This document shows, in pieces, positions 419 through 7,880 of a stretch of DNA of 36,151 bases; positions within the stretch are counted from its first letter, which is position 1; each line of letters begins with the position of its first letter. A program made the translations under genes and the position numbers. The DNA is from a virus: positions 1 to 36,151 of the IMG/VR virus record IMGVR_UViG_3300013131_000009; one strand, written 5' to 3'. The notes beneath the pieces were generated by a model, which worked only from the letters and a program-made list of their open reading frames with translations, was not told the origin of the DNA and searched no databases.

Positions 419-889
419 TCATAGCGGACGCTCCCGTAATGATTCGAGCCAGTCGCCTTTATAATTGAATGATGGTGCTTTCACAAATGAATGTTTCTGC
501 GAATCTAAAGTTGCATTCCACTCATCCTCAATTAATGAATCATCATCAAGATAAGGCTTATCTCTATACCAGTGTGCTTTTTTATCACCAAATCCATCAA
601 TAGCCCACCAATTAGCCCACTCAGGCGCTTGACTCCAATCGGGTTGCCATTCTTCCACATCATCAAAATGTTGTCCCTCACGCTCAACAAATGTATTTGG
701 GTGGGTTAGCATGTCGCGGATTTCTTTTCGTTTTTGCGCTGCTTCTTCTTTTTCACGATTATCTGCTTCGGCTTGCATTGCATCTGCGTACTGAAAGCAA
801 AGAGAAGCCAGCAACTTCATGTCTGTTATTGGTTCAACACTCTGCATTGCAATAGCCATCTCATGCGCCAATTCCATTTTAGTTTTCAA
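419..889 (-). CDS. Hypothetical early protein, acidic and Trp-rich
   Basis: 156-aa ORF in the leftward operon whose start overlaps the stop of the upstream gene. The C-terminal half is rich in D/E/W (EEWQPDWSQAPEWANWWAIDGF). No motif recognised. Confidence 0.65.
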   Translation of the reverse strand: MKTKMELAHEMAIAMQSVEPITDMKLLASLCFQYADAMQAEADNREKEEAAQKRKEIRDMLTHPNTFVEREGQHFDDVEEWQPDWSQAPEWANWWAIDGFGDKKAHWYRDKPYLDDDSLIEDEWNATLDSQKHSFVKAPSFNYKGDWLESLRERPL

Positions 890-1248
890 GACACTTCTCC
901 CAAACTATCAACCACGCCAATCGGAAGACCGAACACACTTTTAAAAGCCTTATCAAATTCACCACTTGCGATGTACTGGTCAATATCAGAACTCGGATGA
1001 TCGTGTTCTTTTATATAGCTGCTGAATGCTGTATATAAGCCGTTTAAGTTCTCTTTAGTTACGCCAATATGGGTGTTGTCGCCGATGTTTTTAACTGGAA
1101 AGCCAACACTTAGATTAGAATCATCAATGATTTTCATGAACAGGGGCAATTCATCTTGGTTAAAAATCAAGTCAAACGGCATTTCTCTACGCAACTCATC
1201 ACAAACATAGTTCGCCACTTGAAGCTTGGTTAATTGATTTTTAGTCAT
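886..1248 (-). CDS. Hypothetical early protein
   Basis: 120-aa ORF. It shares 8 nt with the upstream gene (its ATG at 1248..1246 lies inside that gene's last codons, ATGACTAA), and the downstream gene start overlaps its stop. Confidence 0.65.
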   Translation of the reverse strand: MTKNQLTKLQVANYVCDELRREMPFDLIFNQDELPLFMKIIDDSNLSVGFPVKNIGDNTHIGVTKENLNGLYTAFSSYIKEHDHPSSDIDQYIASGEFDKAFKSVFGLPIGVVDSLGEVS

Positions 1249-1606
1249 TGGTTGGCTCCTGTGCTTCGATCATGGCTTTATACCCAATTTTTAAGGTCTT
1301 ATCATCCACCGAAATACTACAAGCACCTGCATACGTGTCTTCATATTCAACCTCTGGAAAGGCATCAAGAATCTTTTGTGTCGGCTCTTTCGGCACCAAA
1401 ACAAAACCATCGGGAGTGGCTTGGGCTTTGGCTGCTTGCCATGCTTGCCATGCAAAACTCATTGCTTCTGGTGCGGAGTCTGGGCAAAAATCCTCGTTTG
1501 GATAATATGTATTACTTTCTTCGTGGTATCTAACCCAATCCTGATCTAAAGCAAGCTTAGCAAGCGGCAATGCCTCAAAAGCCTTTCTATCAATATCTTT
1601 AGTCAT
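1241..1606 (-). CDS. Hypothetical early protein, acidic
   Basis: Start chosen at ATG 1606 (GGAGCAAGCAAATG; its ATGACTAA contains the upstream gene's TAA stop). The longer track ORF (to 1717) would overlap the upstream gene by more than 100 nt. Confidence 0.6.
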   Translation of the reverse strand: MTKDIDRKAFEALPLAKLALDQDWVRYHEESNTYYPNEDFCPDSAPEAMSFAWQAWQAAKAQATPDGFVLVPKEPTQKILDAFPEVEYEDTYAGACSISVDDKTLKIGYKAMIEAQEPTND

Positions 1607-2237
1607 TTGCTTGCTCCAAAAACGTTGTGTCATGCCACCATTCTTTGTTTTCTTGAAGATACTTAGTGTGATCATCTTGAGTGCCGTTCCATTCTTCCAA
1701 AGTGATTGAATCCGCAATGCATTGACCGACTTTAGGGAAAGTCTGTAACGCTTCTGACTTCAAGCGATATACCAACTGTTCACCCATTTCTTTTGATGGA
1801 ATCGGATGCAAAAGCTCTGAATCAGGTTCTTCAGGAATATTTACTGCCCATAACTTTTGATCATCTTTAGTCATTTGCGCCACCTTCTTCTTTAACTGTG
1901 CTTTGAGCAGCTCAATTTCAGATTGCAATTCTTCAACTTTTTCAGAATGCAAAACTTTAAGATTTTCAGATGTAAAAGCGTTTTGACAATCTTTAGCTAT
2001 GCGCTCAATAGTTTTTTCAAGATCAAGAAATGATTGAGAATCTGAACTATTCAATCCATGTTTAAAAGCCCCTTGAACAGCACCAAAAATAGTTGAATAG
2101 TGATATTTCTGTCCTGCAAATTTGCTAGAATTAATATATGTTTCTTGCTGTTTTTCAGGTATTTTCCCAAGAATAATTCCTGATTCATTTGCGGAAGAAT
2201 AAATCACCCATGCTTTATTTAATCTAATTTCCATCAC
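1599..2237 (-). CDS. Hypothetical early protein with central coiled-coil segment
   Basis: 212-aa ORF containing EELQSEIELLKAQLKKKVAQ. Its start overlaps the stop of the upstream gene. Confidence 0.65.
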   Translation of the reverse strand: MMEIRLNKAWVIYSSANESGIILGKIPEKQQETYINSSKFAGQKYHYSTIFGAVQGAFKHGLNSSDSQSFLDLEKTIERIAKDCQNAFTSENLKVLHSEKVEELQSEIELLKAQLKKKVAQMTKDDQKLWAVNIPEEPDSELLHPIPSKEMGEQLVYRLKSEALQTFPKVGQCIADSITLEEWNGTQDDHTKYLQENKEWWHDTTFLEQAND

Positions 2238-2458
2238 GCCACCTTCAAACTTTCTAAAAATTCTTTGCCATTGTTTAGATACTGCTTTAAGAAAAGCACG
2301 TATTTTTGCTTCATCGGCTTATTCATCCGACCTGTATAGTCCATTTCTAAGCGTTGCTTTGCGTTGAAATACTGCACTGATGTTTGTGTTCGCTTTCCTT
2401 TAAATCCGCCTTTAATCAGCCAAATTTCAAAGCAAGTGAGAATGTTTTTACTCACCAT
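2234..2458 (-). CDS. Hypothetical small protein (start uncertain)
   Basis: The track ORF 2234..2626 overlaps the exonuclease gene by 110 nt. The internal ATG at 2458 (MVSKNILT...) avoids the overlap. Confidence 0.45.
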   Translation of the reverse strand: MVSKNILTCFEIWLIKGGFKGKRTQTSVQYFNAKQRLEMDYTGRMNKPMKQKYVLFLKQYLNNGKEFLESLKVA

Positions 2459-2516
2459 GTCATCACCACGCCCAATCCAAGCAGCATCAAAAACATTACC
2501 CCAAGTTTGAGTTCGA

Positions 2517-3176
2517 TCATGCTGCCACCTTTCCTTTGCTACGCTCAGCAAATAGCTGCTCATAGTAGTTTTGACAGTGCGGAATCTTGTCTTTAATCTT
2601 TTGAATAACCGCTTCGTCACGCTCAATAATCACAGTCGTTTTGCGCTCTCGAATATCAATTGCTTCGACAAGATGAACCAACTGATCTATGTCATCCCAG
2701 TCTTTTAATAATTCAGGTGGGCAAGGGAATAGCCAAAAATCAATGTTCGCCACTTCGCAGTCATACAGCCACATATACGCTTGCATCTGCACGTCATAGC
2801 CTGCCTTTTTGACCTTTTCCATCGCTTCATCTGCAAAGAATGGATGTGTGCCAATATCCCAAGTGACCTTGGTGTCAATAATGAGTTTTCGCTCAAGATC
2901 AAGCACATCACACTCACCAGTGATTAACTTATTTTCAACACGTCCAACATGCTTTTGGTAATTGCGAAAGCGCATCTTGCCTGACAATTCAATTGCTAAA
3001 TCTTCAAGCAAATTTCCTTTTTGCGTGTACTGGTTGCCAGTGAATGAGCGAAAGCCGTATAAGTCCTCTTTCACAATGTCACGAATTGCAGACTTTGCAG
3101 TGTCGCTGATGACAGCCGCTTTAGAGCGACCATCACCAATGAGTTTGTGTAAGGATGAACAGCGGAATAGTTTCAT
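2517..3176 (-). CDS. YqaJ/lambda-Exo-like PD-(D/E)xK recombination exonuclease
   Basis: GECDVLDL ... LIIDTKV matches the D...(D/E)xK nuclease core. The N-terminus CSSLHKLIG resembles the YqaJ family. It is operon partner of RecT. Confidence 0.7.
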   Translation of the reverse strand: MKLFRCSSLHKLIGDGRSKAAVISDTAKSAIRDIVKEDLYGFRSFTGNQYTQKGNLLEDLAIELSGKMRFRNYQKHVGRVENKLITGECDVLDLERKLIIDTKVTWDIGTHPFFADEAMEKVKKAGYDVQMQAYMWLYDCEVANIDFWLFPCPPELLKDWDDIDQLVHLVEAIDIRERKTTVIIERDEAVIQKIKDKIPHCQNYYEQLFAERSKGKVAA

Positions 3177-3403
3177 AAGTCACCCTTAGCTTTCTTTTTG
3201 GTCAGCTCGTGCCAATCAAGCAACTCTTGATAGTCAAAGTACACAGATGATTGGCTAGAATCCCCATCTTTAATTGGTTTAGGAAAATCAGCGTCACGCT
3301 CAATAATGTTTGAGAGTGTTTGGCGGCTAACATCAAGTAATTCGCATGTGGTTTTTTGGCTAACACGAATAGGGTTTGCTTTGACAAATTTCACCTTCTC
3401 CAT
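3173..3403 (-). CDS. Small AlpA-like HTH DNA-binding protein
   Basis: VSQKTTCELLDVSRQTLSNIIERDADFPKPIK...W fits the AlpA/Xis pattern. ATG 3403 shares one base with the recT stop (TGATG), with GGAGG 7 nt upstream. Confidence 0.55.
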   Translation of the reverse strand: MEKVKFVKANPIRVSQKTTCELLDVSRQTLSNIIERDADFPKPIKDGDSSQSSVYFDYQELLDWHELTKKKAKGDL

Positions 3404-4275
3404 CACTGAGCCTCCACCGCTACACGCTGCGCATCTGTCAAAGCATAACCATCCAAGATATAAGCCTTGTCAATCGCACCAGCATTCAACTGTTCAAGTA
3501 CCGCGCCAAATTCATCATCGCTTAGCGGTAGTTTTGGTGCTTCTAAATCCGCAACCGATTCGCTGTGGTCGATATAATCAAACTCGTCTTTTTCCACATC
3601 ACGGATGATTGCTTGATCTGCCATTTGTGCTTTTTGCATATCAATTGAAAGTGGTGCCTGCTTCGATAAAAGTAGCTTCAACACGGTTTTAAGTGCCATC
3701 GCTTCAAACTGATCTTTCCACACGCCAAAGCCTTTTTTAGCTGTTTGGCTGTATTTGTTAGCGTGCTTCATTACTTCTTCTTTACTCATGTAAAGTTCAG
3801 CAGTAAAGCCATTAATCAGCTTGAAAAACGCCACATATCCAATCGGGTTGCCATTTGGCTTAACTGACCAATCGAACTCATAACCAAGTAAAGGATTTTC
3901 GCTAATCAACTGCCCATCATAAACAGGTGTTGCAGCAATACGACTGAACTGACCAGAACGTTGTGCTAACTGGATGTATCCCTTGTACCCAAGTTGAAAT
4001 TGAGCTTCGATGGTGTTTGTTTTGTTGTTCTTGAAAGGAACAATGTAGGCAAAACCGAGATTGTTATTGATTGGCAAATTCAGCGTTGCAGCCATACATG
4101 CAGCACTAAAAATAGTTTGAGGATCTGCATTTACCAACATTGAGTTGCTGTTCACGATCTGCAATACAGACGTTGCAAAAGCAGGGGCATTTTTACCAAC
4201 AAGTTCTTTTAGCTTTTCCTGAACCATTGGCTTTGCGAAAAAGTCTTTAGCGTTGTGTTTTACTGGTGCATTCAT
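3403..4275 (-). CDS. recT: RecT-family single-strand annealing protein
   Basis: GFAYIVPF, QFQLGYKGYIQLAQRSGQ and GYVAFFKL are characteristic RecT blocks. 290 aa, adjacent to the exonuclease gene. Confidence 0.85.
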   Translation of the reverse strand: MNAPVKHNAKDFFAKPMVQEKLKELVGKNAPAFATSVLQIVNSNSMLVNADPQTIFSAACMAATLNLPINNNLGFAYIVPFKNNKTNTIEAQFQLGYKGYIQLAQRSGQFSRIAATPVYDGQLISENPLLGYEFDWSVKPNGNPIGYVAFFKLINGFTAELYMSKEEVMKHANKYSQTAKKGFGVWKDQFEAMALKTVLKLLLSKQAPLSIDMQKAQMADQAIIRDVEKDEFDYIDHSESVADLEAPKLPLSDDEFGAVLEQLNAGAIDKAYILDGYALTDAQRVAVEAQ

Positions 4276-4344
4276 TTCTATTCTCCGAGCAAATATCTGC
4301 GCAATTTCCTTTGATTTTGGATAAATTGCGCAGATTTGTTCTCA

Positions 4345-4539
4345 TTAGGCTGCTTTCTTTAAAAGCTGTTCTGTTTTTTGTGCTTCAATCGCTTTGATTT
4401 CAGCAATCCAGTTTTCGTATTCGTTACGATCTAAATGACCGAATGCGTATAAAGTCTCTACTGCTTGATTAAGCTCAGAAGTCGTATAAACACGATCAAG
4501 CTTTGACTTCATGTTCGAGAGATATGATTGAGCGTTCAT
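4345..4539 (-). CDS. Hypothetical small protein
   Basis: 64-aa ORF whose start overlaps the stop of the upstream gene. Confidence 0.55.
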   Translation of the reverse strand: MNAQSYLSNMKSKLDRVYTTSELNQAVETLYAFGHLDRNEYENWIAEIKAIEAQKTEQLLKKAA

Positions 4540-5321
4540 CTCTTAATCCCTCCACGCAAAGCTGCTACGACTTGCTTGATTTCTTCTTCGGTGCGCCAAC
4601 AAGCAAAGTGAGTGCAACCAACATGATGAACAATGGACTTATATCCCAATGGAGTTGATGAATCTAAAACCCAAATTAACTCATTGCTTTTCGGCTCAAA
4701 AGGCGCAGGAATCTCCACGTTTAATGTGATGGTGCGGGGTTTGATTCGGAATCTAAAAGCATTACCAAGAAACATTCCAAGAAGGTGATGATTATTAGCT
4801 CTTACCCAATTATTTTCCTTGTCTCTTAACTCAACCTCTTTCCCATCCGCCAAAGCTCGTAACGCATCAGCCCCACTAATCAAGCCTTGCTCTAATGACT
4901 TTTGAATTGGCTTTAAATCGCTGATTTTGTACTCATCATCTTCAACTTCATCCCATAGTTGCCATTCATTTTTGAAGTAGTTGTATCCATACCAAGAGCC
5001 ATTTATATTTATTGCAGCTCCATTCATGCCATCACAAGAGTGAGTCGCATCATTCACATCATTACGATGCAAAACAACAAGGTCTCGAAGTTCAGGTAGG
5101 GTGAGTTCTTTTCCAACCCACCCATCAAGCATTACATCTTCATCCTTGTCGAAATAGCACAAGCAATTTTTCCCTTGGAAATCCTTTGTAAAAAGAAGAC
5201 CAAGTCTCCATGAAACAACCTCTTTTCCTGAGCCATTCCACTCATAACCCAACTCAAAAAACAACTCCTGAGCTTCTCTACTTTCTGCTTCGTTATTCAC
5301 TTTGATTTTGTAGTTATTCAT
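4536..5321 (-). CDS. Hypothetical early protein
   Basis: Start set at ATG 5321 (MNNYKIKV), with GGAG 8 nt upstream. The track start at 5330 is a GTG. No motif recognised. Confidence 0.65.
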   Translation of the reverse strand: MNNYKIKVNNEAESREAQELFFELGYEWNGSGKEVVSWRLGLLFTKDFQGKNCLCYFDKDEDVMLDGWVGKELTLPELRDLVVLHRNDVNDATHSCDGMNGAAININGSWYGYNYFKNEWQLWDEVEDDEYKISDLKPIQKSLEQGLISGADALRALADGKEVELRDKENNWVRANNHHLLGMFLGNAFRFRIKPRTITLNVEIPAPFEPKSNELIWVLDSSTPLGYKSIVHHVGCTHFACWRTEEEIKQVVAALRGGIKR

Positions 5322-5322
5322 C

Positions 5323-5436
5323 TCACACACTCCACACAGCAGGGCAGATCACCGTGTAAAGCACGTATAGAGCTGCAATTAGCAAAAGGAAATAAATGAT
5401 CATTCCAATAACGCAGTTTTTCCATGTGTTAGGCAT
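5323..5436 (-). CDS. 37-aa hydrophobic membrane peptide (below the track's reporting length)
   Basis: AGGAGAACGTT ATG. Product MPNTWKNCVIGMIIYFLLLIAALYVLYTVICPAVWSV has one TM helix. Its stop lies 1 nt before the next start. Confidence 0.55.
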   Translation of the reverse strand: MPNTWKNCVIGMIIYFLLLIAALYVLYTVICPAVWSV

Positions 5437-5454
5437 AACGTTCTCCTGGAGCGC

Positions 5455-5838
5455 TTAAACGCGCTCTCTTAGTTCTTGTTCGATGATTTCTTTGATCTCT
5501 ACAACATCGAGACGATCAACGTATGCTTGGATTTCACCATCTTCGTTGTAGACGCGAATGTCTTTGATTTCTTTTACTTCAACATCACGCCAGTTATGAC
5601 CCACGCCATTTCCATCCATGTAAACGTCTGCAACGTATTCCACTTCCAACGAATACTGCTCATCAGCAGTTAAGAGAGTTGCTTGCTCAGCTTTGACATT
5701 GATTTCGTCAAGTTTGAAAGGAGCCATCACATAGACTGGCTCGTTTGTTTTTGCTGGTACGATCGCATAAGCAGCAGTTAATGCACTTACTACGCCTGCA
5801 AAGCCGATTGATTTGACTACATTTGCTTTTATGTTCAT
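5455..5838 (-). CDS. Exported or membrane-anchored acidic protein, first gene after PL
   Basis: Start at ATG 5838 (GAGTGAG upstream). MNIKANVVKSIGFAGVVSALTAAYA-IVPAK looks like a Sec signal peptide with an AYA cleavage site. The track start (5937) lies inside the PL promoter. Confidence 0.6.
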   Translation of the reverse strand: MNIKANVVKSIGFAGVVSALTAAYAIVPAKTNEPVYVMAPFKLDEINVKAEQATLLTADEQYSLEVEYVADVYMDGNGVGHNWRDVEVKEIKDIRVYNEDGEIQAYVDRLDVVEIKEIIEQELRERV

Positions 5839-5858
5839 ACTCATCTCACTCTTTGAGT

Positions 5859-5893
5859 AAAAGTCCCGTCGGTCGAATGTCAGGGACTTTTTT
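5859..5893. promoter_or_regulatory. A/T-flanked hairpin in the PL leader (terminator-like in both directions)
   Basis: AAAAGTCCC-N15-GGGACTTTTTT lies between the predicted PL start (~5902) and the first gene. Confidence 0.45.
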
Positions 5894-5908
5894 GTTGTCT
5901 GTGAGATA

Positions 5909-5937
5909 AATATCGCATTACCGATATTAATAGTCAA
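5909..5937 (-). promoter_or_regulatory. PL-like early leftward promoter
   Basis: The minus strand reads TTGACT-17 nt-GATATT. The spacer and -10 carry one operator and the -35 overlaps a second. Confidence 0.6.
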
Positions 5938-5971
5938 TAGGAAATCCGATAAAAATATAGAAAAACCGATA
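5911..5971 (-). promoter_or_regulatory. OL: three 16-bp operator sites
   Basis: Minus-strand reads: TATCGGTAATGCGATA (5911..5926), TATCGGATTTCCTATT (5936..5951), TATCGGTTTTTCTATA (5956..5971). The same family occurs at OR. Confidence 0.7.
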
Positions 5972-5995
5972 TTTTTATTTTTACTATGTTTTAAT

Positions 5996-6026
5996 AGATG
6001 AAAGAAAACCCAAATTTAGTGGGTTT
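5996..6026 (-). terminator. Terminator of the CI immunity operon
   Basis: On the minus strand, AAACCCA-CTAAATT-TGGGTTT is followed by TCTTTC, downstream of gene 6072..6575. Confidence 0.55.
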
Positions 6027-6071
6027 AATGGAGATAAGATGAATAAAATTGAATCGGTAATTATTAAACGC

Positions 6072-6575
6072 TTACTTTGGGCTACTATCTTTTTCAATAG
6101 TATAACTTTGGCCTGTATGCTTTTTATTATCTACAGCATTGTAAAAAACTGAAAAGTAAATGGTAACCAGAATAGATATAGCAGCAAGTATTGAAGCGAT
6201 GCAGCCAACAATAAATGTTGGTGTAACAGTCCAGTGAGGTTTTGACGATTCCTTGATTTGTCTCATTAAAAGCTCATTGCTTATTAAGGTCAATGTAGCT
6301 GGATCTATAGCCCCTTTATGATTTTCACCACTCAGCAATTTTTGTAAATAATTGGTTTCCATAGAGCTAAGTTGCTCAGCCTTGATGTCAAGGAAATTAG
6401 GATCAGCTATTCTTGGAATTTTGAGCTCCAATTCCTTAATCAAATTGCTTTGATCAAAAATATTGTTTATTTGAGCATTATGGTCTTCATTTGTTTTATC
6501 TAAGCCAGCACTTATCTCTTTAACTTTCTCAAGCGTTAACTTACCAAGCTTAATAGTATTTTTTTCTTCACTCAT
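6072..6575 (-). CDS. Tail-anchored membrane protein of unknown function, co-oriented with and downstream of CI (rex position)
   Basis: ATG at 6575 lies 21 nt after the CI stop, preceded by AGGGTAAAAA. 167 aa with a single C-terminal TM (TPTFIVGCIASILAAISILVTIYFSVFY). The DNA is markedly AT-rich. Confidence 0.75.
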   Translation of the reverse strand: MSEEKNTIKLGKLTLEKVKEISAGLDKTNEDHNAQINNIFDQSNLIKELELKIPRIADPNFLDIKAEQLSSMETNYLQKLLSGENHKGAIDPATLTLISNELLMRQIKESSKPHWTVTPTFIVGCIASILAAISILVTIYFSVFYNAVDNKKHTGQSYTIEKDSSPK

Positions 6576-6596
6576 TTTTTACCCTAACTCTTAATT

Positions 6597-7259
6597 TTAA
6601 CTTTTTCTAACACGCTTTGGGCGTGAACCACCTAATGGTCTAAATGCATCAATTACCAATCCCACAAGCTCCATACCTTCCTCAAACTCAATGATGTTTG
6701 GTTGAAAATTAGGATTGAGTGCTTGTAAATATTTCCTTTCATCGCTTTCAATCACAAGCTTCTTGAAAGTTGCATCTGAATTACTACGCACAACAACAAG
6801 ATCTTCTGAGATCAGATCTGATACTTGATAACTTGGATTAACTAAAATGTAATCTCCATCTAAGTAAGTTGGTGAATTACTAACTCCTACAACTCTTAAA
6901 TAAAAACACCCATCAGGGTCATCTGAACTTAAAGGTGGTAGCCATTCATTTATATTTTTAGGATCAATAGCCTCAACCGATGTCATTGTGCCTGCCTGTA
7001 CCCACGATAAAACAGGGATTAATTTTGTGGTTACTGGAACAATATTATTGTCCAACTCACAAATAACGCCTTTTTTTAGTTCTTCAGCAGTAACACCTAA
7101 AGCGTTTGCTAATTCAAGAATAGAACCTGTTGACTTAGCATTACCCGTTTCCAAGTCAGAAATAACAGACTGTTTAACTCCAGATTTTTGAGCCAATTCT
7201 TTCTGGGTCATTTTTTTCGCTTTGCGAATTTTCTTTAAATTTTCACCAAGAGTAGCCAT
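6597..7259 (-). CDS. CI-like repressor (XRE HTH + S24 LexA-type autopeptidase domain)
   Basis: The N-terminus MTQKELAQKSGVKQSVISDLETG is an HTH. The C-terminal GVSNSP ... TFKKL fits the Ser/Lys dyad region. Start set at ATG 7259 (AGGAGAAGCGC ATG), because the predicted PRM start excludes the upstream ATGs. Confidence 0.85.
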   Translation of the reverse strand: MATLGENLKKIRKAKKMTQKELAQKSGVKQSVISDLETGNAKSTGSILELANALGVTAEELKKGVICELDNNIVPVTTKLIPVLSWVQAGTMTSVEAIDPKNINEWLPPLSSDDPDGCFYLRVVGVSNSPTYLDGDYILVNPSYQVSDLISEDLVVVRSNSDATFKKLVIESDERKYLQALNPNFQPNIIEFEEGMELVGLVIDAFRPLGGSRPKRVRKS

Positions 7260-7278
7260 GCGCTTCTCCTTCATAACC

Positions 7279-7306
7279 ATTATCGGAATTGTGATACAAA
7301 TTTCAA
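7279..7306 (-). promoter_or_regulatory. PRM-like maintenance promoter for CI
   Basis: The minus strand reads TTGAAA-16 nt-GATAAT and overlaps operator sites. Confidence 0.5.
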
Positions 7307-7343
7307 TCGGTTTGGCTATTGTATAAATATCGGAAAACCTATA
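7281..7343 (+). promoter_or_regulatory. OR: three 16-bp operator sites
   Basis: TATCGGAATTGTGATA (7281..7296), AATCGGTTTGGCTATT (7305..7320), TATCGGAAAACCTATA (7328..7343). Confidence 0.7.
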
Positions 7344-7347
7344 TATT
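7319..7347 (+). promoter_or_regulatory. PR-like early rightward promoter
   Basis: TTGTAT-17 nt-TATATT. It aligns with PL (CTATTGnnTnnATATCGG is shared). One operator lies in the spacer and one over the -35. Confidence 0.5.
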
Positions 7348-7371
7348 TATAAAAAATATAGGAGGTGTTCT

Positions 7372-7572
7372 ATGAGCCAGTGGCAAAAAATGATTATTGA
7401 TTTGAAGGAACAGGGATTAACCCAAACCCAAATCGCTGCTGAGATTAATTGCTCTCAAAACTATGTAAGTAACCTTGAAAACGGCTTATGTGGAAAACGG
7501 ATCGGGTATGAATTGGGAAAAAGCCTGGAGCGTCTATGGAAAAAACACTGTCCACACAGTCCAGCAGCATAG
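7372..7572 (+). CDS. Cro-like HTH regulator
   Basis: 66 aa with TAGGAGGTGTTCT ATG. LTQTQIAAEINCSQNYVSNLENG is an HTH. It is divergent from CI across the operators. Confidence 0.75.
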   Translation: MSQWQKMIIDLKEQGLTQTQIAAEINCSQNYVSNLENGLCGKRIGYELGKSLERLWKKHCPHSPAA

Positions 7573-7580
7573 GTGCGCAA

Positions 7581-7880
7581 ATGGGAGTCGATGATTTGAA
7601 AGAAGCAATCGAAAAGGGATATTTGGGCGGGAAATACACCGTTCCCAAAACCATCAAATTTACACATGAAATGCTTGATGCAATCGCTGTTGCCAGTGAG
7701 ACCAACGAGCAGGATTCGTGTAACTGGGTGCGTGAGGTCATAGCGAAAGCCCTACTAGCTGAAGATGCTAAGTATGAGCGTATGGCAAGAGCGCGTAATC
7801 GGTCAAAGTGTACTTCGGACACTTTGGGACACCAAAAAGAAAGCCCATCTGCTGTAACAGATGAGCCTGATGTTCAATAA
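7581..7880 (+). CDS. Possible ribbon-helix-helix regulatory protein (CII-position gene)
   Basis: Start at ATG 7581 (AGGTG + 5 nt). TIKFTHEMLDAIAVAS...NWVREVIAKAL has a strand-helix-helix pattern. The function is inferred from position only. Confidence 0.45.
   Translation: MGVDDLKEAIEKGYLGGKYTVPKTIKFTHEMLDAIAVASETNEQDSCNWVREVIAKALLAEDAKYERMARARNRSKCTSDTLGHQKESPSAVTDEPDVQ

Follow-up and report, generated by a model that had tools for sequence, protein, structure and literature searches.

What is encoded in the slot between the repressor gene and the leftward operator (OL) of a lambdoid prophage, and does the gene found there work alone? The question is raised by the IMG/VR virus record IMGVR_UViG_3300013131_000009, whose 36,151 nucleotides (nt) were analyzed as a whole and are referred to here as the window. 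The window represents a temperate, lambdoid Acinetobacter phage or prophage, and directly downstream of its CI-like repressor gene there is a gene (6072..6575, minus strand) for a tail-anchored membrane protein of 167 amino acids (aa) that belongs to the family PHROG 23821. An initial annotation, made from the sequence alone, judged the architecture of the product to be typical of single-gene abortive-infection or superinfection-exclusion effectors. That reading is reasonable but incomplete. The 3′ end of the gene is overlapped by a conserved, convergent gene on the opposite strand (6039..6152, plus strand; MNKIESVIIKRLLWATIFFNSITLACMLFIIYSIVKN), which had gone unnoticed and encodes an unannotated hydrophobic membrane peptide of 37 aa, and a candidate antisense promoter adjacent to OL also belongs to the cassette. 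What deserves attention is the whole cassette, 5987..6575, rather than a single open reading frame (ORF). As its best reading, we tentatively propose a lysogen-expressed two-part membrane cassette that serves exclusion or abortive infection, or toxin control.

The small ORF shares DNA with the final 26 codons and the stop codon of the 167-aa gene, with codon position 2 of one frame opposite codon position 2 of the other. Its ATG and its Shine–Dalgarno (SD) sequence (GGAG, 6030..6033, plus strand, 5 nt before the ATG) are located outside the 167-aa gene; in relatives, (T)GGAG stands directly after the hairpin that precedes the ORF. The loci used for comparison (L numbers) were mostly metagenome, IMG/VR, and isolate contigs, and a scan of species-representative genomes gave two loci. 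The 37-codon ORF is retained in nine distinct sequences (the window and eight other loci), and it starts with TTG in L024 and L025. Conservation of the DNA spans the transmembrane (TM) helix of the 167-aa protein, continues through the stop codon to the exact ATG of the small ORF, and then drops to unrelated sequence types.

Positional variability is uninformative by itself in such an overlap, where the first and third codon positions vary equally, and the ratio of nonsynonymous to synonymous change (dN/dS) and the avoidance of stop codons were used instead. In the frame of the small ORF, synonymous (pS) and nonsynonymous (pN) divergence were 0.41 and 0.16, respectively, for the 10 codons outside the 167-aa gene, and 0.52 and 0.14 for the overlap. 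In the frame of the 167-aa gene, the polar tail whose opposite strand encodes the small ORF (residues 146–167; 6075..6140, minus strand) gave a pS of 0.28 and a pN of 0.22. In L026, the tail of the 167-aa gene has been lost via in-frame stop codons and the 37-aa ORF is intact; compared with the others, this ORF has a pS of 0.90 and a pN of 0.175. The codons TTA, CTA, and TCA, which produce stops in the 167-aa frame, make up about a third of the Leu and Ser usage of the phage. In the tail-bearing loci they account for none of the 44 Leu and Ser codons of the overlap, and in L026 for three of seven. On these tests, the small ORF is under purifying selection in its own frame and is a real gene, and both overlapping frames appear to be maintained. 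A decayed copy was seen separately in L027 (about 1984..2100), where the polar tail and the 37-aa ORF are disrupted by stops and a frameshift and the remaining family gene is intact.

The 37-aa peptide has a single hydrophobic stretch. Five variants of it gave zero family matches in Pfam and PHROG, tblastn of the peptide against phage genomes found nothing, and an exact look-up indicated that it has never been annotated. A DNA-motif scan of IMG/VR detected the peptide only on contigs that also carry a family gene. In a uniform scan for convergent small TM ORFs with an SD sequence, such an ORF was found beside 12 of 17 family genes, compared with 4 of 219 control ORFs from the same loci. The window's own 37-aa copy falls just below the hydropathy cut-off of the scan, though it is homologous to the others. 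The partner peptides are of five apparently unrelated types. They include a convergent small TM ORF of 33 aa in phage YMC11/11/R3177, one of 55 aa in L028, one of 41 aa after the family gene in the restriction-linked locus L038, and, in L040, a 78-aa single-TM protein from a called gene, which shares ~80 nt with the family gene. The pairing of the family with TM peptides is beyond chance.

For the 167-aa gene, codon analysis was performed with the window gene and nine relatives, and the regional values are averages over all locus pairs. The ratio of mean pN to mean pS is 0.86 in the N-terminus, 0.44 in the core, and 0.23 in the region of the KPHW motif and the TM helix. When the window gene was compared with its relatives in this last region, seven of the nine gave a pN of 0.00–0.07 at a pS of 0.56–0.77; the TM region differs between relatives in third codon positions only, and its synonymous sites are saturated. 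This saturation excludes recent DNA exchange as the cause of the TM conservation. For the tail, the low pS is accounted for by dual coding. The ORF 6072..6575 is a genuine gene under selection, and its TM helix is under very strong purifying selection, with a pN of 0–0.04 at a pS of about 0.7. A stripe of small residues (G124, S128, and A132) runs along this helix. Because the constraint is so tight, we infer that the helix makes specific helix–helix contacts, with itself or with a partner, and is more than a passive anchor.

In alignments, the protein divides into an N-terminal extension that is variable and optional, about 50 conserved core residues, and one TM helix. Residues 1–60 (6396..6575, minus strand; pN/pS 0.86) constitute the extension, in which a conserved LGxLTLExVK helix was found; the predicted local distance difference test (pLDDT) score is 56–73 here, and the short family members (123–129 aa) lack this region. 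Residues 61–111 (6243..6395, minus strand) form a conserved small helical domain with helices at 66–71, 74–82, and 92–111 (pLDDT 94–97). Its motif is L..IK.MSDEELLK.LSGE....G......QQLI..EL..R., which continues into I..ASKPHW in the alignment core. Residues 112–145 (6141..6242, minus strand) comprise the KPHW juxtamembrane motif and the single TM helix, and they are near-invariant in the Acinetobacter relatives. The hydropathy profile (KD19) has its peak of 2.68 at residue 121, and the next best value elsewhere is 0.63. The AlphaFold2 model, based on a 60-sequence alignment, has a mean pLDDT of 80, with 85–97 over residues 55–145, and places the TM helix at 117–145. In the predicted topology, the 61–111 domain would be cytoplasmic and the one C-terminal TM helix would lie in the inner membrane. 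Some family members end directly after the TM helix, and others have long tails; only the Acinetobacter subgroup has both the long extension at the N-terminus and the polar tail with its dual coding. The initial annotation had described a helical soluble N-domain of about 120 aa, of which the compact conserved domain at 61–111 stands, and residues 1–60, being variable and modeled with low confidence, do not. It was right about one C-terminal TM helix with a polar tail, as there is a single strong hydrophobic segment followed by a tail of 22 residues.

The guanine–cytosine (GC) content of the gene is 0.333, which is in the lowest 2% of 504-nt segments of the window (mean 0.42, standard deviation 0.04). 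The AT-richness noted earlier is thus real, but the contrast drawn with replication genes of about 47% GC was overstated, the values for these genes being 0.383 and 0.414. The accompanying suggestion of a moron signature is weakened because the entire immunity block is AT-rich, with cI itself at 0.365.

The 167-aa protein matched the PHROG 23821 profile, which has no assigned function, with E = 3.1e-16 (residues 66–136 against positions 25–95 of 96), and all of the 60 diverse relatives sampled matched the same profile (best E = 1e-34). An exhaustive profile search gave 135 family representatives at 50% identity. The close homologs fall into 42 clusters, and every cluster with a source name is from Acinetobacter. 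By tblastn, phages YMC11/11/R3177 and AM106 were each found to carry a member, which in YMC11/11/R3177 lies downstream of a gene annotated as 'regulatory protein'. There was nothing significant in Pfam, NCBIfam, or PADLOC, in line with the earlier failure to place the protein in a named family, nor in a sequence-profile search of the PDB, and Foldseek with the model against PDB and BFVD gave zero matches with E below 0.1. In these profile and structure searches, PHROG 23821 alone was matched significantly.

Several known families were considered as candidates. SieA, SieB, and Imm are absent among the Pfam, PHROG, PADLOC, and NCBIfam matches of the protein. A SLATT or Pycsar-type effector was rejected: the best PADLOC score was E = 0.011 (RTasSLATT), Pfam gave no SLATT match, and the protein has one TM helix, not two. 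Among the 60 relatives, SLATT and Pycsar were represented by single weak matches to DUF4231 (E = 0.032), a SLATT-related family, and to the Pycsar effector family PycTM (E = 0.037), both driven by the TM stretch. A holin was dropped, as the only match was to phrog_689 with E = 0.23. For residues 61–111, weak BFVD matches to SAP and Rho_N (E = 0.7–1.4, probability ≤0.1) pointed to a SAP/HeH-like DNA-binding fold, which was supported neither by the PDB sequence-profile search nor by Foldseek on a better model. By sequence and by predicted fold, the 167-aa protein is outside the Rex, Sie, holin, and SLATT families.

The expected time of expression follows from the layout of the immunity region. 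The gene order of the window is an early-left operon with recombination-type genes, divergent cI and cro, O-like and DnaB-like replication genes, and structural genes, and the nearest database phages are Acinetobacter phages. The CI-like repressor gene (6597..7280, minus strand) encodes HTH_3 (Pfam, E = 1.6e-14) and Peptidase_S24 (E = 1.1e-16) domains and matched PHROG 4 'transcriptional repressor' with E = 1e-45. A promoter resembling that for repressor maintenance (PRM; TTGAAA-16-GATAAT, 7306..7279, minus strand) ends on the listed start codon of cI, and because of this the true start is probably the ATG at 7259, which has AAGGAG ahead and gives a product of ~220 aa instead of 227. The 167-aa gene begins 21 nt past the cI stop codon on the same strand. 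The spacer (6576..6596, minus strand) has a weak AGGG/AAGAG ribosome-binding site; a promoter or hairpin was looked for there and none was found, a gap of 21 nt being too short for a hairpin.

Downstream of the 167-aa gene, an intrinsic-terminator-like hairpin (6006..6026) with its T-run (together 5996..6026, minus strand) marks the end of the cI operon. The hairpin has a 7-bp stem with three GC pairs, a 7-nt loop, and a free energy of −6.9 kcal/mol, and the T-run, present beside it on the minus strand only, extends to about 5996. Relatives keep a hairpin at the same position with different and stronger stems (−8.6 to −12.9). The OL/PL region (5909..5972, minus strand), where PL denotes the leftward promoter, lies directly beyond. 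The PL-like promoter (TTGACT-17-GATATT, 5937..5909, minus strand; −35 at 5937..5932 and −10 at 5914..5909) has TG before its −10. In its spacer there is OL1, a perfect 18-bp palindrome (ATATCG-N6-CGATAT, 5910–5927). OL2 (about 5935–5952) was found by eye and has four mismatches, and OL3 (5955–5972) has one mismatch to the 18-bp palindrome. Beyond OL1 and OL3, the single other copy with 0–1 mismatch in the 36-kb window is the rightward operator (OR) between cI and cro (7327–7344). An Rfam scan of 5300–7700 returned zero known RNA families. These data confirm the junction, the terminator, and the lambda-like order of PRM, cI, gene, terminator, and OL/PL described in the initial annotation, and they add matching operators on both flanks.

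The position of the gene is conserved as well. In every Acinetobacter-type locus examined, a same-strand S24 repressor gene precedes the family gene, at a distance of about 20 nt to 2.8 kb, sometimes with other cargo in between. From the lambda-like geometry and this conserved position, co-transcription of the 167-aa gene with cI can soundly be inferred, and the gene is the predicted distal gene of a PRM-type repressor operon in a lambdoid Acinetobacter prophage.

On the opposite strand, a candidate extended −10 promoter (TGtTTTAAT, 5987..5995, plus strand), here called P_AS, faces the small ORF and would transcribe the cI operon in antisense. Its motif, TGnTTTAATAGnC, adjoins OL in 22 of the loci compared, with all four bases occurring at n. 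The distinct copies continue with AAAAGAAAACCC and the hairpin, next (except in L029) with (T)GGAG, and finally with a variable ORF. This module (5987..6033) is also present in L005, L006, L014, L015, L017, L019–L023, L028, and L029, and it is found across different operator (immunity) types. In L005 and L017, the motif is shortly followed by a gene in antisense orientation, whose product has 115 aa in L005 and, in the related L002, 151 aa. In phage phi1_092021 (L029), TGnTTTAATAGnC is present without any ORF. Because the motif is conserved across immunity types ahead of different ORFs, P_AS appears to behave like a real extended −10 promoter reading back towards cI. Transcripts of the small ORF would carry the cI-operon terminator hairpin, in its plus-strand form, as a stem-loop at their 5′ end. 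CI control of P_AS is likely from the operator arrangement: the right half-site of OL3 is at the −35 position of P_AS in the window. This spacing would allow activation by CI in the manner of OR2 and PRM, whereas the OL3 of close relatives, 11 nt nearer, looks repressive.

Other genes occupy the same region in related phages. In L024, the slot between cI and the terminator (2151..4882, plus strand) holds genes for a 616-aa AAA_21/AAA_15 ATPase and a D12 adenine methylase. The same slot of phi1_092021 (716..2223, minus strand) holds a protein annotated as 'DefenseFinder protein' and, instead of the family gene, one for a different membrane protein of 167 aa with several hydrophobic segments. 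The distant family members are GC-richer; in L038 (636..2795), one lies 14 nt after a N6_N4_Mtase-Mrr_cat-iREase fusion gene, and in L012 (1..2115), another is near an MmeI-type methylase gene. One follows genes for a group II intron reverse transcriptase and for a zinc-ribbon protein, and others are next to a D5-type primase element or in a plain chromosomal context. On gene content, the region after cI is a putative cargo or defense slot, and the family appears associated with mobile and restriction-type genes.

Some features of the neighboring PL operon were also noted. Just downstream of PL (about 5850..5905, minus strand), a conserved leader CACAGACAACAAAAAAG is followed by a GC-rich stem (GTCCC...GGGAC) and a T-run. 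Relatives retain the leader with other stems; attenuation in the leader, or antitermination at a nut- or put-like site, is a possible function of the region. The first gene of the operon (5455..5850, minus strand) encodes a protein of ~127 aa that begins with a hydrophobic signal or anchor and matches PHROG 9193 (no assigned function; E = 8e-37). A 475-nt stretch around this gene is 75% identical to Alcaligenes phage Piluca.

Here, we propose how the two-part cassette may work. In the lysogen, transcription from PRM would run across cI and the 167-aa gene and stop at the hairpin. The peptide mRNA, SD sequence and start codon included, would be fully complementary to the 3′ part of this transcript, which would thereby keep peptide synthesis low, and the tail-anchored 167-aa protein would meanwhile reside in the membrane. 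When the balance shifts, the peptide, the oligomerized anchor protein, or both may compromise the membrane. Candidate triggers are a superinfection that shuts off host transcription and the loss of CI, and the outcome would be abortive infection or exclusion of a Rex-like or type-I-toxin-like kind. A more specific version, a new kind of prophage system for toxin control or abortive infection in which the 3′ end of the repressor-operon mRNA is the antisense antidote of a 37-aa membrane toxin expressed from the promoter beside OL and the PHROG 23821 protein is its partner or protein antidote, seems to us unlikely. If it were true, survival of the cell would be coupled to continued PRM transcription, and the distant members with convergent TM peptides near restriction-type genes would form a widespread, unrecognized two-gene defense family.

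Several observations weigh against the proposed two-part cassette. There is no significant similarity to a known defense, exclusion, toxin, or holin family or fold, or to an Rfam entry. Many type I toxin mRNAs have an unusual structure, whereas the fold of the predicted peptide mRNA (6001–6170) is no better than that of shuffled sequences (z = −0.58). The terminator of the window (−6.9 kcal/mol) is the weakest of the set. Between OL3 and the −10 of P_AS, 11 nt are inserted in the window relative to its close relatives L014 and L029, and since the spacing differs, the sign of CI control is uncertain. The partner is absent in L043, L010, L011, and L042 and decayed in L027, and therefore a protein of the 167-aa type must also work alone. 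Finally, the cI gene of phi1_092021 is 81% identical in DNA, yet the cassette is absent, and it is therefore dispensable for the phage.

These partner-less loci (L043, L010, L011, and L042) favor the first alternative, which is close to the original description: the 167-aa protein alone would block DNA entry or depolarize the membrane upon superinfection, and the peptide gene and its promoter would be passengers. The position in the cI operon fits this as well, and so does the near-invariant TM helix, which would be expected for a specific membrane interaction. Passengers, however, would hardly account for the enrichment of TM-peptide ORFs in five peptide types (12/17 versus 4/219) or for the maintenance of both overlapping frames, and the protein has no homology to SieA, SieB, Imm, or Rex. 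We consider this alternative improbable.

Less probable again is a module of the phage life cycle. Here, P_AS would fire as CI falls and make a kil- or hok-like peptide that acts early or assists lysis. The antisense transcription would at the same time silence residual cI-operon mRNA and reinforce the lytic commitment, with the 167-aa protein as the antidote of the lysogenic state. P_AS, the hairpin, and the SD sequence recur together beside OL across many immunity types, one phage without a family gene among them, and the OL3 of most relatives borders immediately on the extended −10, suggesting repression by CI. A precedent is hokW-sokW (PMC8621323). A lysis–lysogeny role makes no sense for the distant, partner-bearing members, which are found in non-prophage contexts linked to restriction–modification, and the peptide mRNA has no special fold.

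Lysogenic conversion is still more doubtful. In this case, the anchored domain would bind a conserved host factor of the inner membrane or cytoplasm, such as one of the pilus, competence, or transport machinery, and would alter physiology or receptor availability without killing. The TM helix is extremely constrained within Acinetobacter and different in other hosts, which fits a host-specific membrane partner, and small prophage inner-membrane proteins acting on host machinery have precedents (PMC8764522, PMC6832061). The conserved cytoplasmic domain has no recognizable fold, and the distant members beside restriction-type genes point instead to defense. A chance ORF or decaying remnant in an AT-rich spacer, for which the low GC content and the absence of a family annotation might be cited, has practically no chance of being correct, as it is refuted by the comparative data (codon-level purifying selection, 135 representatives, a confident structure model, and conserved synteny).

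Prophage genes co-transcribed with the repressor are a classic source of phage-exclusion systems, and the slot is filled here by an uncharacterized family that no defense catalog searched recognizes. The new element is the architecture, in which the repressor operon ends in a gene that shares dual-coding DNA with the antisense gene of an unannotated membrane peptide, served by a conserved candidate promoter adjacent to OL. The recurrence of TM-peptide genes beside distant members makes a two-component membrane system directly testable. In addition, a conserved small gene of Acinetobacter prophages has been systematically missed by gene callers, which is relevant to judging the phenotypes of lysogens and to engineering temperate Acinetobacter phages for therapy.

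The two-part cassette can be compared with three kinds of known systems. T4 Imm and HK97 gp15 are inner-membrane superinfection-exclusion proteins, and P22 SieA is another. The latter has been characterized as such (PMC10883804). Like these three, the 167-aa protein is a predicted prophage-expressed inner-membrane protein that would be expected to act at the membrane against an incoming phage. It differs from them in having no sequence similarity, in being tail-anchored with its mass predicted to lie mostly in the cytoplasm, and in its type of locus.

The second comparison is with type I toxin–antitoxin systems carried by prophages, such as bsrG/SR4 of SPbeta. The yonT/SR6 pair of the same element is presented as a further prophage-borne example (PMC5848175), and in hokW-sokW of the Sp5 prophage, the toxin is produced after mitomycin C treatment and aids Sp5 release (PMC8621323). 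As in these systems, the mRNA of a small hydrophobic peptide in a prophage would be fully complementary to a convergent, overlapping transcript; the geometry guarantees this provided that transcription of the cI operon extends to the hairpin at 6006–6026. The peptide also resembles type I toxins in its build, with a short charged N-terminus followed by one TM segment, and in its length (37 aa, that is, below about 60 aa), but it has no homology to Hok, Ldr, TisB, Ibs, Fst, or other Pfam toxin families. The main difference concerns the complementary transcript, which here would be the 3′ end of a protein-coding repressor operon rather than a small RNA, with an overlap that is dual-coding. No separate small-RNA promoter or Rfam antitoxin RNA was found at the locus.

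The third comparison is with lambda rexA-rexB, which share the PRM transcript of cI and bring about abortive infection, with depolarization of the membrane upon superinfection. Like these genes, the 167-aa gene follows PRM and cI in the same orientation and precedes the terminator and OL/PL, and like Rex, the cassette has two parts and a membrane protein expected in the lysogen. The likeness does not extend to the proteins, as no Rex family was among the Pfam matches at E up to 1 and there is no fold similarity; RexB has four TM segments and the 167-aa protein has one. The second component is also of a different kind: the partner in Rex is a co-directional cytoplasmic sensor, whereas the partner in the window is a 37-aa peptide encoded by an overlapping gene on the opposite strand.

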